This document shows positions 15,001-24,000 of a DNA stretch of 64,000 bases, one piece after another (the stretch's first letter is position 1; each line of letters starts with the position of its first letter). The stretch spans positions 128,001-192,000 of the forward strand of contig CBEUCH010000002.1 in the NCBI GenBank assembly GCA_965541585.1. Reading direction: 5' to 3'. This DNA comes from an uncultured bacterium. GTDB lineage: Bacteria; Zixibacteria; MSB-5A5; UBA10806. Position numbers: made by a program.

Positions 15001-18000
15001 TAGACAACGTCCCAATCGAAGTAGACACCGGCGTAGTAGTCGCTGATTGTCGCGCCGGAATTATTGGTGATGGTGAAAATATGGATGAAGATATCGCCGG
15101 CCTGCACTACATCGGGGGGCTGGAATCCGATACCACAGTAATTGATATCAACACCACCCATAACGCCTTCATCGTCATAGGCGCACGTCGGGTGGAAGGG
15201 ATCCAATAGATTCAGGCTCTCAGTTCCCCTGTAGCGATAGCAATCGGTGGGAGTAGCGCCTGTCTGATTGTAATGAGAAAACATCCTCGCAGGACCATCT
15301 CCCATTACGAAGGTAGCGCCATGATTTGCCGGATCGATGCCGTAGCTATAATTATCATCCTGGTAATCGGGGTCGCCGAGCGGTCCGTAATTGCTGACCG
15401 CACAGTCCGGTATGTTGCCGGTCTCGGCCAGCCCCCGAGGTGTCATGGCTTCCTCGATCCTCAGATCGAAACTGGAAATACAATCAGGAGAGGGATAGCT
15501 ATCGATCATTATCCAGTAAGTGCCGGGCTGCAGGGTCAAATCTTCTAAACCGTGGGGAGCAGCTACGTTTGATGTCGATGAGGCAATACATTCGTTCGAA
15601 TCGGGCGGGCAAAAATCGTCTACCAGGATTCCTGTAAACGCATCGTCATGTGGGTCGAGAGTGATATCGAGCGTTATGACCTCAGAAACCGTAAACTCAT
15701 AGACGATATCCTCGCCGCCGTCATAGTCGTCAAGACAGGTATCGTCTTGGTCGTTTCCCGCGCCGCACGTCGTCCGACCTATATCGGAAAATGGCAATTG
15801 CGAGTTTATGTCGCCGATAACCACGTCCGGGTTGCATGGGGGCGTCGGCGTACATTCGACCCACATAGTATAATCGTTACCCAGAACACCGTTTCCATCA
15901 CATGCCAGATCCTCGGACCAGTCACTCGGCGCGATCCTTATCCAGTATATTCCGGGAAGCGCTTGCTCCAGTATCCGCGCCGTTTGGCAGCGGCCGACGA
16001 TCCGGGAGGTATACTGATAATCCTCGCAATCTTCGTTGCCCACGTCGTCGATGAATAGAAGCTGGAGCGGGAATTCGGCAATACCTCCAATTTCCAGATC
16101 AGATGGTGCAGTCACCTCGAACCTGTACCAGTCGATGTCGCGGTAAAGCCGATCCTCGCCCGGATTATCCGGATCTTCGCCCAGGAAAACGCCGCTCTTG
16201 CCGCATATTGTGTCGCCACATGCAATTTCCGTCCAGATCGGTTCCAGCGGCGGAACGGCATTACATCCGATGTTGAACTGATCGATATAATTATAGTGGC
16301 AATCCGGTTCGGCCTCGGGAATGCCGTTATCGGGGCAGGTAAGTTCGCATAACTGATCGGTGATCACAACGTCATCGAAAGAACAGGCATAACCCCATTC
16401 GGCGTAATAATGCATCGTCAGGGTATGTATATTGCCATCGGCGTAGTCGTCCAGTATCACCGAACGAATTCCCATAAATGGAATATTATCAGGCGCCTGG
16501 ACGAGATCGGCCTGTTCGCCATCGATAAGGACCTCGAAGTAATCCACGGAAGGGACATAAGCCCTGAAATACAACCAGTAGCTCAGAGTTAGCTGGCTGC
16601 CAACAGGAGTTGAAAAGTCGACGGAAATTTCCTCATCTGTGGTCGATCCGAAGCCACCGCCGTAGGAATCTGAACCGACCATATAGCCGCCGCCCTGGTT
16701 CTCGATGTGACCCCAGGCGTAGTCCCAGGGATCCGGGCGAATTACCCAGTCCTCGGCGCCGCTGCCATCGCCATTGCTGACAGCGGTCCAGGCCGGGTCG
16801 TTTGTGAAATCGCCGTCCTCGAAATCATCGTAAAGCCAGTCAGTCAGGAAAAGGGGACGTTGCCCCGGTAAGAGGATAGAGGAATCGAAGAACCGTTCGG
16901 TCTTTATAGGGCTTTGCCGCACAGTGCCCCGGTTACTTGCTTGAGGCTTAACTGCGGTGGTCGGCAAACGAAGAATGCCCGTTCTCGCTGGTTCGGCCAG
17001 GGCCGAAACCGTCTTGCCTTCAGCAGCAAGAACGGCCTGCCAGGCGAACAAAGCGAGGGCGAGAGACGAAGTAAATCTTATCTTCATATCAATCTCGGCC
17101 ACGATAGTTAAGGGAGTGACAAGACGCTTCTCACTGTCAAGCTTTTTTTAAGCCCGGGAGTTCAGGAATAGTCACCATTGATACTTGAGCTCTCTTAGTC
17201 TTCAAACTTCATTTTGCTTTATCAAAGGGGCGAGATATTTATAATTCTTGTTGTGAAATCTGCATGACTTATATAAATTGTCGAAAATAAAGGCGTGGTT
17301 TTCAGCCCCTGGCGGGTCAATCGTCAGCAATTCGGAGGATGCTATTGAAGCTTAAGATCAAATCACCGGTACTGAAGTCTCTTGCAAAACTTTACATAGC
17401 CTTCGGCGCGATTCTGGTTTTTTTTATTGTCATCTTTAACACCCAGATCTTTTACTTGAATGTCAACGTCCCTTTTACATCATTCATCGTTCTTTCATCC
17501 AGCTTTTTGATAAATCTGTTCGGAGGAACCTCGTTCGTTGACGGCACTCATCTGTCCACCGCGCAGTTCGGCATCAATGTCGTCGACGGCTGCAACGGGA
17601 TCTATGCCACGGCCATACTACTGTCGGGCGTTATCGCGTATCCCGCCAGGCTGACCCATAAGATGCTGGGTGTGCTTGTTGGAATTGTCGCCATTTTCGT
17701 TCTCAACCTGGTGCGGGTGATAAGCCTTCTATATCTCGGGCAGTATTTCCCCGATATATTTAAAGAAATTCACGTTTTTATCTGGCAGCCTATCATAATC
17801 CTGTGGGCGATCTATATCTGGTATTTGTGGTGGCACAAGATTGAAGGCAAAGAAGCCAAATAAATGGTTTTTTCTTCTCAGGTTTTTGATCGCCTTTGCG
17901 ATCATTTACCTGCTGTGGAATTTCTCGGCTCCCCTCGCGAATAGAGTGTTTACATTTTTCGGCGGAAATATCCTGATGCTGTTTGACGGCGCAAACTATA

Positions 18001-21000: not shown

Positions 21001-24000
21001 CCGCCAGAATAATAACTGCTCCACATATACCAAGTGCCCCCAGAATACGCCCAGTGCTCACATGGGACCGGGGGACAGATGAGTGGTTCATCCATTAAAA
21101 ATGAAGGAAGGCTTCCCCCAGGATCGCTATATTCAATACCGATATAGACCGGTCCGTTAACACAGCAGGGAGTCGAATAAGTTAATGGACCCACAGTGGG
21201 ATACTCATAAGTGGCGGCATCACAGATAAAAGTCTCACGGCAGAGTTCCGCGCCGGGTCCCGCGCATGGATCTCCGGGAATCAGCATATCGTATACCACG
21301 AAATCAACCTGAACCGGAAACGGCAAAGCGCCATCGTCATAAAGAGTAATCCACAGTGTAGTTATTTCAAGAGGGTATGTTGGAGCCGGGCAAACCGCCC
21401 ATGGATCATAATATGTGATTGCGCGGTCGCCAGTAACCAAGCCTGGATTATAGTAGCCCGGAATATTGCATGTCTTCGTAAGCAGGCAATAATCAAGAGT
21501 GGTCTGCGGCTGTTCGATAGGCAGTACCTCGCCTATTCTCGAGCCTTTTAGTTCACCCTTCGCCATGGCTGCAGTGCCGAGGATCAGGACAAGGCCGAGG
21601 GTTAAAATCAATGACTTTTTAAGCATTAAATTCTCCAATTCTAATTGCTTGAATTTATTGTGCTGTCGAGTCTCAATATTCGGCAACTTTAATATCAGGT
21701 GCAGAGACTCAACACCGCATCTGGATGTTTAGCTCATCCCGGGAGGTTTAATCGGCGGCGCACGGAGATTAGGTAAATAGTCCCATCTCTTTGTTGAACT
21801 GATACCTTCAAAAAGCGGAAATAATTTTCTTGCCAAGGGAAATCTCAAGCCCGCAATTGAGAATCGGATTCGGCTTACATACTCGATAAGCATGAGAATT
21901 ATGGAGTTAACAAGCACGATGAAAAACGAGATCATCAATAAGCCGAAAAGAGATGCAAACCGGATAAGCTCGCTCGAATCGGCCGTCGGGAAACTTAAGA
22001 CGCCTCCCATGCCCGGGTACCTGATCAAGAAATATTCAAGAGGAACCCATATGGCGGCGACAAAAACAGGGTTAAATCCGATATATTTTTTTGCTCCATT
22101 GACGGCCATTCCGAAGATTGAAAAGACCAGGCTCAATAATAATAGATTAAGGAGAAAGTCCGCGGGAGCGGCCAGAGCCTCGCCAATGAAAGCGACGAAG
22201 GCATAGCAGCCGGCAAGAATCACACCCAGCAGAATAGAACCGGCCAAGGTTGTTCTGTTCAATTGCCACAGGAGTGGAACCAGGGCAAATAGCGATATGA
22301 ACCAGTATTCAGGATATATATGGGCAATCGATAGGATTAAAGCCGACGTTCCGGCGCAGATAAAATGAGCCAATAGTCTCACCGTGATATCGTTATGCCT
22401 TGAATCCGCATCCATTATTTTTGTCTGTCTCCGGCGATGAGGCTCCTCCCTCTATACCGTACCAGTGAGCGGGACCATTGACGCATAAATCTGCGGACGG
22501 ATGCGCGGCTTTACCAATGAGCAGAAGGCGACTCCAGATAGGCTACTAATATTAATTTTGTGCCTCCTGTGAGGCTAATCTGTTTCTCTGACAGCCTTGA
22601 TCACGTGATGCGAAGTCTGTGAACCCGCCGTCAGATAATCAATTACAAGCCCTGGCTTCAGCCTGAAGAGATTTAGTTGTGAAAGTGTGTTGAGTCAGAA
22701 ATGCTCAATCATCAATTTCTAATATTAAGATAGGCGACCCACATTTACTTGTCAAGAAAAAAATAGAGGGGATTATCAACATAGGAGACCGGCGAGGTCG
22801 AAGGCCCTCACGGGGGCGGTGCGCCGGCCAAAAAGCGCCTGAAATTCTGGCGAAAGCCCGGAAAATATATTACATTGGTATAATGAGCATCGGGCTTTTG
22901 GACGACAGCAAAGGCTGGAACGATGATCAGTTGTATTCTGTTGGATAAGAGAGTGCGAATCGGATTGGTGTGAGCATTTGAGTAGACCTTTTTCCGGGAG
23001 GTTGACAGCATGGGGTTGCGTATAATTGTCCTTTCCTTATTTATCCGGGCCACAGCTCTCGGGGTCGAGAGTGGCGATTTTACTTTTTATGACGGCGAAT
23101 CGACTGTAGCCGCCACCGTTCAGCAAGTGGATCGTACCGTTTTAAACCTTCAGATCTCGAACCTCGAATATGAAGTTGATAGCGATAACGGAATAGACCA
23201 ATACCGGATTCATTTGCCGGAGGTGTTTGGCGTATCGAGGGGAGCATTTCTGAGTTCGAATAATGTGTTGATCCCTACCATAACCAGATCCATTGCCGTA
23301 CCGTTTGATTCGGAGCCGGTGTTCCGTGTGACCTGGTCGAATTTTGTGGAATTGACGGATATAGTACTTGCGCCTGCAGGCGAGGAGGAATTGGATTCGT
23401 ATTCCAACGGCAATGAGAATATCTCATCGAGCCTCGAGAGGGACCTGGTGATCGCGGAAACGGCGGGGATGATGCGGGATGTAAGAATATATTCTCTGAC
23501 GATCTCGCCGGTGCAATATGATTTGGAAAGCAAAGTCGTTAAAGTCTATAACGAAATTGAAATCGAGATCGACCATGGCGGTTCACGGATGGTACGTTAC
23601 GAGGACCATATATCGGAGGCTTTCTTGCCGATCTATCGCTCGTTTCTGGATAATCTCCTGGTGTTCGACCCGATTGAGGTAACCCGTGGCGCCGACTGGA
23701 TCATATACCCCGATCCTTTCCTCGAACATATACGGCCCATAGCGGAATGGAAAAGGGCCAAGGGTTATGATGTTGAATATATTGCCAAAAGCGATATTGG
23801 CTCCAACCCATCGTATGTGGCTATAAGAGACTATATCTCGGCGCGTTTCGACTCGTGTCAGATTAAGCCGGATTATATTACCATCCTGGGAGACGTCAGC
23901 ATGCCGTCCGGTTATGGAATCCCTACGCGACACTATGATAATCCTCTGGGTTTTGGCGATATAGAATCGGATAATTACTATACGTTTCTCCTGGGTGGCG

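Follow-up and report, generated by a model that had tools for sequence, protein, structure and literature searches.

The window, by which we mean the whole stretch of 64,000 nucleotides that was analysed, comes from the genome of an uncultured Zixibacteria bacterium and carries an exosortase locus with the following features:

14115..17102, minus strand: secreted 995-aa protein with a Cys-rich dockerin-like tail, a seed of our own dockerin HMM; divergent from xrtH
17339..17863, plus strand: exosortase H (XrtH), 174 aa (TIGR04177, 97.6 against a cut-off of 86)
17841..18431, plus strand: XrtH-associated membrane protein, 196 aa (NF041730, 40.9 against a cut-off of 35)
18708..18724, minus strand: terminator-like hairpin 3' of the IPTL gene, a pattern match only (11 found against 6.1 +/- 2.5 in shuffles)
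18792..18902, minus strand: IPTL-CTERM tail with motif, transmembrane helix and basic cluster (TIGR04174, 27.2 against 20.5, residues 929-956)
18792..21686, minus strand: secreted DUF7901 protein with IPTL-CTERM (both Pfam), convergent to xrtH
21729..22415, minus strand: candidate ribosome-arrest leader, a 228-aa membrane protein consisting of a stand-alone Lnt N-terminal domain (LNT_N, 41.7 against 27.1) followed by RAPP
21753..21764, minus strand: R218-A-P-P221 codons of the leader, from the sequence
26834..28729, plus strand: M14 carboxypeptidase with a T9SS C-terminal domain, paralogue of an IPTL-tailed copy at C12:33069

The survey's finding of one exosortase H with its XrtH-associated protein is confirmed: the two genes are adjacent, each scores above its curated cut-off, and the genome yielded no further XrtH. 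Cys85, Arg126 and His145 of XrtH, which we take from exosortase and archaeosortase work to be the catalytic triad, are invariant in 28 of 28 aligned sequences. The associated protein has no Cys at the position of C85 and matches XrtH by profile (probability 77%, E 2e-5, 128 columns), suggesting that it is probably a catalytically dead exosortase paralogue. The second exosortase reported earlier, EpsH, is also present (197.8 against a cut-off of 105.55), together with EpsI and one PEP-CTERM protein.

The start of the DUF7901 gene is likely the ATG at 21626, judged by the start codon and its Shine-Dalgarno sequence, giving 944 aa. A homologue adjoins xrtH in six related genomes (G075, G050, G092, G043, G027 and G018), and in G107 a different passenger takes its place; the DUF7901/IPTL gene is thus the tag gene kept beside xrtH within the order. 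DUF7901 domains elsewhere are mostly paired with dockerins. An Atlas search with the DUF7901 region stayed below 0.9 throughout, and Pfam missed the dockerin-like tail of the divergent 995-aa protein. In G122 an inversion seems to divide xrtH; it was considered as a phase switch and rejected, as scaffold gaps flank it; no long inverted repeat was found in the window or in four related regions.

A tail HMM recovers 33 IPTL tails in the genome, a set beyond chance because the next match has an E-value of only 0.5. The tagged set reported earlier is therefore real, with a count of 33 instead of 32. Of the ending given for it, IPTLSEWG, helix and RRR, exact IPTLSEWG occurs in 20 of the 33 and RRR in 22; the tripartite tail sits on exported, otherwise unrelated proteins (a signal peptide in 30 of 33 by a crude hydrophobicity test). 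One of the genes, C14:22308, is frameshifted, its missing N-terminus being found in a separate upstream ORF. XrtH occurs in 12 of the 24 genomes of the order and IPTL tags in the same 12, which bears out the joint presence that had been claimed; the relatives have 1-29 copies (1-28 in the claim). In a class sample of 121 genomes, all 37 IPTL-positive genomes carry XrtH. Mapped onto the SprA tree, presence shows only 3 changes, so that the co-occurrence within the order amounts to few events; the data indicate that the enzyme pair moved laterally once. Up to 33 tags per genome are found in the order versus 1-5 detected elsewhere in the class. The XrtH/IPTL-CTERM system is real and of an already known kind.

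We then compared the passengers of the tagged proteins with those of other cargo. The genome has about 260 cargo genes that resemble one another; 183 T9SS-tailed ORFs were counted, one of them a relic on C22 (cargo about 182), and our dockerin HMM found 46 ORFs. At a threshold of at least 40% identity over at least 60% of the shorter passenger, paralogues with a T9SS tail exist for only 13 of the 33 IPTL passengers, and paralogues with a dockerin for 3. All five passenger pairs put forward by the survey were reproduced (81% over 435 aa, 77% over 459, 83% over 331 and 62% over 750, with 55% over 344 for the dockerin pair), supporting tail exchange between close paralogues. In the 83% pair only the S8 domain is aligned, the partner being cut by a contig end, and the 3' half of the IPTL copy resembles another IPTL gene. 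Faulty binning or assembly is an extremely improbable source of the pairs. The genome is metagenome-assembled, and one partner sits on C15, a contig of lower GC (0.447), another at the edge of its contig; yet the genome is 98.2% complete with 0.94% contamination, local GC at the C15 gene is 0.498, and the same swapped genes with the same junction recur in other genomes.

The direction of the swaps, undated in the earlier account, can be read from the DNA and need not be assumed, as relics show the T9SS signal overwritten in place. Out-of-frame T9SS-tail relics lie behind the stop codon of 3 of the 33 IPTL genes versus 0 of 46 dockerin genes; in relatives they follow 2 of 108 IPTL-match ORFs, one of them an unrelated gene. 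They belong to only two gene families, and the count excludes one dockerin-ending ORF among the 108 and a dockerin match behind a G050 gene that is probably the next gene. The IPTL patch exceeds the replaced stretch by 4 nt, and 3 of the 4 relic genes that were aligned take their IPTL stop codon from T9SS-tail DNA in a different frame. The relic at C22:835 matches the T9SS-gene tails of G123 at 174 of 229 nt (tree sister) and 183 of 241 nt (neighbouring paralogue). Trees point the same way. The IPTL copies do not form one clade (p-AU 1.6e-63, 5 changes). A propeller tree was built from complete matches, with partial ones left out. M14 carries a T9SS tail in most of the order, and its IPTL-tailed version is confined to XrtH genomes, where it is an additional copy; in the DNA tree, which used 19 of 30 M14 rows, the IPTL copies of genus g1 nest with g1 T9SS copies (bootstrap 100) and the g5 copy falls outside. 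The M14 pair itself is 81% identical in protein and 85% in DNA as far as a point 15 nt short of the IPTL tail. Judging from relics and trees, the readable swaps all run from T9SS to IPTL and occurred several times, and reverse swaps may also take place. By DNA comparison the donors of the IPTL-tailed genes are mosaic. We rejected the idea that the IPTL tail arose de novo from T9SS-tail DNA, as the two show no likeness, whereas IPTL tails resemble one another at 72-88%. A cassette of tail plus terminator used universally was likewise rejected, with 3' DNA common to only 9 of 528 IPTL pairs versus 10 of 6039 IPTL-T9SS pairs.

How should this traffic between tails be understood? The survey had proposed three surface-sorting systems among which enzymes are re-routed. 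Tails are indeed mixed in 15 of the 31 multi-member passenger families (10 mixed families include IPTL), the M14 passenger occurs with all three tails within the order, and T9SS parts are present: SprA in 24 of 24 genomes, PorU adjoining a PorV gene, and at least 8 PorV-family matches over the cut-off. The equivalence of the three is overstated, because a dockerin serves for docking and depends on cohesin carriers, and of the three cohesin ORFs (4 Pfam matches) two themselves carry T9SS tails. Re-routing is overstated as well, given that only the 13 and 3 passengers above have paralogues with the other tails and that tags of this class in general are marked by homologues with differing sorting signals, as the Haft preprint states. 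For IPTL and dockerin proteins no path across the outer membrane is evident, GldK/L/M/N and PorP gave no match above cut-off (no control genome passed either), and the readable swaps have one direction. We therefore regard three equivalent display systems with re-routing in every direction as doubtful. A cluster on C20 unites GspD/E/F/G-like homologues with no PilT, all below equivalog cut-offs; it may be a type II secretion system or an MSHA-like pilus. An association of XrtH with its secretin (10 of 12 versus 2-3 of 12) was rejected, since it depends on kinship and on only 3 independent pairs and is not significant. Alternatively, tail turnover could be mostly neutral 3'-end recombination among the cargo genes, leaving many IPTL copies unselected or decaying. 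The frameshifted C14:22308 and a frameshifted IPTL gene on C73 of G075, the decayed orphan tails at C1:88131 and C24:28406 (weak scores), and a near-identical stretch within the T9SS tails are consistent with this. We nevertheless consider it unlikely, as several swapped copies are kept across species (M14-IPTL in G000, G087 and as a fragment in G075; BNR-IPTL, 87.5% between G000 and G075), with four-fold sites down to 0.60-0.67 identity and T9SS siblings retained.

The gene at 21729..22415 was passed over by the survey although it lies inside the region described; it makes up a fourth conserved component of the system. It encodes a six-helix Lnt-N-terminal-domain protein ending in RAPP. The predicted structure is a helical membrane protein (pLDDT 78), and a fold search placed Lnt structures on top (PDB 8b0l and 8aq2; Z 9.0, rmsd 4.8 over 135 residues); Lnt also fills the top Foldseek ranks, yet with all E-values above 0.1, and a sequence-profile search against solved structures gave no match. 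Against the Lnt model it scores 21.5 bits versus 132.9, covering only profile positions 3-122 of 395. It lacks the Lnt catalytic domain and falls short of the about 500 aa expected of Lnt, the best 150 relatives being 152-291 aa, and 24 of 24 genomes encode a full-length Lnt at another site. NCBIfam has no model for it, and the LNT_N-RAPP protein is apparently undescribed.

The motif R[AGS]PP is found at 29 of 30 loci, in 57 of 58 homologues and in 136 of 147 further representatives (gathered with a profile that includes the RAPP columns) versus 2 of 2296 genome ORFs. R218, P220 and P221 are invariant in all 58, and the RAPP codons vary between sequences. The motif keeps an almost unvarying distance from the last helix: N170 and P220 lie exactly 50 apart in 58 of 58 homologues and in 100 of the 113 others that could be measured, although a control interval within the folded domain is nearly as constant (87 of 100). 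At 30 of 30 loci the next gene, on the same strand, has an IPTL-type tail (22 by HMM, 6 completed from other data, 2 divergent ones judged by eye). Within the order, the leader is found in 11 of 12 XrtH genomes and none of the 12 others; in the twelfth, the contig ends inside the IPTL gene. In the class sample it occurs in 42 of 121 genomes, and 9 of 51 XrtH-matching genomes have no leader match, one of these with only a weak XrtH match. In the genome studied it precedes only 1 of the 33 IPTL genes, with xrtH convergent. No common hairpin sequestering the Shine-Dalgarno sequence was evident by eye in single-sequence folds of 27 intergenic regions. Ribosome arrest at RAPP/RGPP is documented in PMC12992588, whose source data contain six RAPP-ORF/IPTL-CTERM pairs labelled 'hypothetical protein' and passed over in the accessible part of its text. 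The candidate is thus probably a ribosome-arrest leader of the exosortase module that regulates neighbouring genes.

The same protein might instead serve chiefly within the exosortase complex, as a subunit presenting a phospholipid acceptor, with RAPP only pausing translation for co-translational assembly or for holding mRNA at the translocon, and no downstream regulation. It never occurs without XrtH (42 of 42 leader genomes of the class sample are XrtH-positive), it descends from the membrane domain of an enzyme that uses phospholipids, XrtH is short and already adjoined by a dead paralogue, and archaeosortase substrates are described as lipid-anchored in the accessible part of PMC7157517. 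However, the gene tracks the tagged gene and not the enzyme: it lies upstream of a tail gene at every locus, of the 32 genomes outside the order that have the leader, 15 show no xrtH nearby among the matches listed, and genomes hold up to 7 copies. A subunit role of this kind accordingly has a low probability in our view.

On balance, we favour a mobile four-gene module (RAPP leader, IPTL gene, xrtH and associated-protein gene) that combines sorting, recruitment of new substrates and leader control. We infer the sorting from the family; the recruitment is legible in the DNA, as is the leader's anatomy, and the stalling is inferred. IPTL proteins would cross the inner membrane by Sec and be held there by the tail helix, whereupon XrtH would cut at the motif and probably move the protein onto a lipid. 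Exit to the surface could be through the GspE/F/G/D-like cluster on C20, with periplasmic retention as the alternative. The tag spread from one to as many as 33 genes in the order by 3'-end recombination, with a short tail patch, a tail and adjacent module, or a tail and terminator taking the place of the T9SS C-terminal domain in cargo genes, whether existing or duplicated. The LNT_N-RAPP protein would act as a monitoring substrate like SecM, MifM and ApdA: the ribosome would stall at RAPP with the last helix, which lies about 43 residues before the motif, positioned at the translocon, helix insertion or folding would free it, and release would set expression of the downstream IPTL gene and, where it has the same direction, of xrtH. 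More tentatively, and with the odds somewhat against it, LNT_N-RAPP may found a class of polytopic arrest sensors in which an Lnt-derived phospholipid-binding domain reports lipid or insertase state as feedback on exosortase lipid anchoring, the pathway then being a second surface route, gained by overwriting the signals on cargo from a motor-less T9SS.

The findings bear on how exosortases are regulated, on what they attach and on how substrates leave the periplasm; if true, an Lnt-derived arrest leader suggests a connection with lipid. From the relics one can see in what way a new tail overwrites a secretion signal in place. The natural pairs of one enzyme with two tails are ready-made reporters for T9SS versus exosortase routing, and useful for learning how a T9SS with no detected GldLM motor works.

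The locus shares with exosortase H/IPTL-CTERM systems elsewhere (TIGR04177, TIGR04174/PF18203, NF041730) the passing models, the many-to-one pairing of tags and enzyme, and their co-occurrence; it differs in drawing passengers from T9SS cargo and in the upstream LNT_N-RAPP gene. With the Bacteroidota T9SS the genome has SprA, the PorV family, PorU and C-terminal-domain cargo in common, and differs in GldK/L/M/N/PorP, not above cut-off here or in any control. MYXO-CTERM/myxosortase and GlyGly-CTERM/rhombosortase (PMC11980579) likewise have a tripartite tail cut in the diderm inner membrane, but employ a different protease family, and the T2SS step reported there is here only a lead. The leader shares its N-terminal membrane domain (LNT_N) with Lnt (TIGR00546) and lacks the nitrilase-type catalytic domain. 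With ApdA, ApdP, ApcA, SecM and CruR, as presented in the accessible parts of PMC12992588 and PMC10987492, it has in common a small exported or membrane protein with RAPP/RGPP near the C-terminus before a presumably regulated gene. It differs from these arrest peptides in that no common hairpin was seen, in its putative six-helix Lnt-derived sensor, and in its link to an exosortase rather than to sec/yidC or TonB.

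The window covers positions 128001-192000 of contig C2 in genome G000. Zixibacteria is the probable phylum, since that label, among others, is borne by named relatives and homologues. The genome (3.52 Mb; completeness 98.2%, contamination 0.94%) carries a known sorting system, exosortase H (XrtH) and its IPTL-CTERM (IPTL) tails, which on sequence comparison has been expanded by repeated overwriting of type IX secretion (T9SS) signals. Beside it lies a conserved gene, overlooked in the survey's finding, for an LNT_N-RAPP protein that we call the leader.

5695-10029 and 23010-26705, one T9SS-tailed, gingipain-like C25 peptidase each, on either side of the module
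17339-17863, plus strand, xrtH, exosortase H, above the NCBIfam cut-off
17841-18431, plus strand, XrtH-associated gene, above the NCBIfam cut-off
18792-21686, minus strand, DUF7901-IPTL gene, facing xrtH and the associated gene
21729-22415, minus strand, leader, 228 aa, with Pfam LNT_N at residues 24-171
C20:32661-43017, on contig C20, PilT-less GspE/F/G/D-like cluster of GspE/F, three pilin-like genes, assembly genes and a secretin

XrtH residues C85, R126 and H145 are unchanged in 28/28 sequences. We infer that the enzyme cleaves the IPTL tails, and likewise the lipid anchor and the final protein location; an IPTL tail has its end in the inner membrane. Because the associated protein aligns with XrtH (profile match probability 77%, E 2e-5) yet lacks its Cys, it is probably a dead XrtH paralogue. 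The second exosortase reported earlier is indeed present, as an EpsH/EpsI pair that lies amid genes for glycosyltransferases; a single PEP-CTERM protein was detected. In a relative (locus L263, G122:C1:3765493-3768940), an inversion with a 75-bp repeat seems to divide xrtH, but each of its ends borders a scaffold gap, so this is an assembly artefact. The C25 gene at 23010-26705 is syntenic in two relatives (G075 and G087), and a 444-aa DUF6519 protein (12695-14029) lies between secreted-protein genes without obvious partners.

Using HMMs made with the genome's own ORFs, we counted 33 IPTL, 183 T9SS-type (one of them a relic) and 46 dockerin-like tails; the tag has 33 carriers rather than the 32 claimed. 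Among the IPTL passengers (32 surveyed together, the window gene on its own) are peptidases of the S8, M14, M10 and trypsin-like types, BNR propellers, beta-helices, a lysyl-oxidase domain and a sugar dehydrogenase. All five previously listed passenger pairs, IPTL versus T9SS or dockerin, were reproduced. At a threshold of ≥40% identity over 60% of the shorter passenger, 13/33 IPTL passengers have a T9SS paralogue and 3/33 a dockerin paralogue, and tails are mixed in 15 of 31 multi-member passenger families. Decayed orphan IPTL-tail-like DNA was also seen between genes, with weak scores (C1:88131-88205, plus strand, E 0.014; C24:28406-28441, minus strand, E 0.073). Some dockerin tails, at 14115-17102 and in about 19 more dockerin-like ORFs, run on past their final cysteines for 25-33 residues that include basic positions and a P-S/T-L-K-like motif, possibly a secondary signal. 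A 7579-aa protein (C13:51457-74196) has a dockerin-like C-terminal domain, with a cohesin ORF nearby at C13:48351.

Tail exchange between paralogues, whose direction had been left undated, stands, and its direction can now be read from relics and trees. Behind the stop codon of 3/33 IPTL genes (C14:22308, C22:2402 and C22:835) lies a T9SS tail, out of frame and reduced to its last two thirds, and no such relic follows any of the 46 dockerin genes. Relics were found in 2 of the 108 IPTL-hit ORFs surveyed in nine relatives, in which 132 IPTL hits were counted; the one in G075 belongs to the propeller family (85% to the T9SS-tailed C10:20014) and the other to an unrelated gene. In the propeller family, the linker and the T9SS tail's first third are replaced by an IPTL patch that is 4 nt longer, and in 3 of 4 aligned relic genes the TGA on which the patch ends is T9SS-tail DNA in another frame. 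The C22:835 relic resembles T9SS-gene tails of the relative G123, its tree sister's among them, rather than the other relics, so it is the gene's own former tail. A single IPTL clade is rejected (p-AU 1.6e-63), with 5 changes.

The M14 carboxypeptidase (26834-28729) has relatives in 23/24 genomes of the order. Among the 30 loci checked, 20 bear a T9SS tail, 3 IPTL and 3 dockerin, 3 are cut by a contig or locus end and 1 is frameshifted; all three IPTL loci are extra copies in XrtH genomes. The IPTL copies of genus g1 nest with g1 T9SS copies (bootstrap 100), while that of genus g5 falls outside. At four-fold sites the g1 IPTL and T9SS copies are as distant (0.67) as within-genus orthologues (0.66). 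Further genes are mosaic. One of them, C2:279881, matches a T9SS gene at 78% up to a point 160 nt short of the tail; from there its module and tail match a different IPTL gene, again at 78%. We infer that every readable swap ran from T9SS to IPTL, and repeated recombination at 3' ends would have exchanged the tails. Since T9SS copies nest among IPTL copies in the tree, reversals may also have occurred.

As claimed, tag and enzyme are present together in the order, in the same 12/24 genomes; this amounts to few events, because presence switches only 3 times on the SprA tree. Among 121 genomes of the class, XrtH is present in 37/37 IPTL-positive genomes, 14 others match XrtH without an IPTL match, and 1-5 tags per genome were detected outside the order. 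In the tree of XrtH and its associated protein, G018 (family f2) falls with g1 and g5, two genera of family f1 (100/100), and monophyly of f1 is rejected (p-AU 1e-13), in conflict with the SprA tree; this indicates at least one lateral move of the two genes, or hidden paralogy.

The leader occurs in 11/12 XrtH genomes of the order and 0/12 others; in the twelfth XrtH genome the contig stops inside the IPTL gene. Its family is present in 42/121 class genomes, all XrtH-positive, and in 48/151 of the phylum. After LNT_N come a variable linker and R218-A-P-P221. R-[AGSD]-P-P is retained in 29/30 loci, 57/58 homologues and 136/147 further 50%-cluster representatives, against a background of 2/2296 ORFs (≥200 aa) in this genome. 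P220 follows N170, a last-helix residue, by 50 residues in 58/58 homologues and 100/113 measurable others; a control interval within LNT_N is fixed in 87/100. The gene that follows the leader has an IPTL-type tail at 30/30 loci: an HMM identified 22, 6 were completed with the help of other loci, and 2 divergent ones were judged by eye. In 32 leader genomes outside the order, xrtH is co-oriented and within ~3 kb downstream in 13, upstream in 3, convergent in 1 and not nearby in 15. Two genomes of family f9 (G116 and G156) hold 6-7 leader copies each, suggesting one leader per substrate.

The structure model is helical (pLDDT 78) with Lnt as top fold matches, at a Z of 9.0 that is common among helical bundles. 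A broken lnt is ruled out by an intact Lnt at another site in 24/24 genomes of the order. The anatomy is that of a monitoring substrate encoded ahead of a protein-localisation module. Against this reading, no common hairpin was seen, and most RAPP-like sequences tried in two model species reportedly gave no stall (PMC10987492). Ribosome stalling by the leader is probable, regulation of the downstream gene is somewhat favoured, and sensing of lipid state is a rather doubtful suggestion.

Of the three surface-sorting systems proposed, the T9SS parts were recovered: SprA (24/24 genomes of the order), PorU (score 687, cut-off 420), an adjoining PorV gene and 8 PorV-family matches above cut-off unaided. 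The dockerin did not hold as a separate export route; two cohesin carriers are T9SS cargo, so it is a docking tag. Above cut-off, no GldK, GldM, GldN or PorP was found in this genome and no GldL in the 24, with no positive control scored; possibly this is a T9SS lacking the known motor, with ~182 cargo proteins. The loci concerned in this genome are C16:24023-29923 and C11:28244-34170, and PorV-family genes are many. Directly behind PorU, an 863-aa PorV-family protein (C11:31579-34170) carries a large insertion with a weak PorZ match. Two further loci (C7:154177-161878 and C11:111763-120368) repeat one arrangement, in which a TonB-dependent receptor and a C-terminal-domain-like protein stand with a PorV-family barrel and one more exported protein. 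Close relatives of the C20 cluster occur in 10/12 XrtH genomes vs 2-3/12 others, a difference not independent of kinship. The cluster is patchy in the order and was not found in G069, which has one IPTL gene only.

In the literature searched, outside which most subscription journals fall, no publication was found on this system, whether on its tails or on an arrest leader beside an exosortase. T2SS export is described for related tags (PMC11980579), the PEP-CTERM export route is unclear (PMC12188702), and T9SS is possible in other FCB phyla, Zixibacteria being unnamed in the passages covered (PMC11285876). Homologues with different signals are a usual attribute of such tags, as stated in the Haft preprint (10.1101/2023.06.07.544157). 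NCBIfam has no model for the conserved RAPP leader, which is apparently unnamed so far. The source table of PMC12992588 lists at least six RAPP ORFs that precede IPTL-CTERM genes and are each entered as 'hypothetical protein'; by eye these six resemble the leader family, with a spacing of 51-52 in the three counted.
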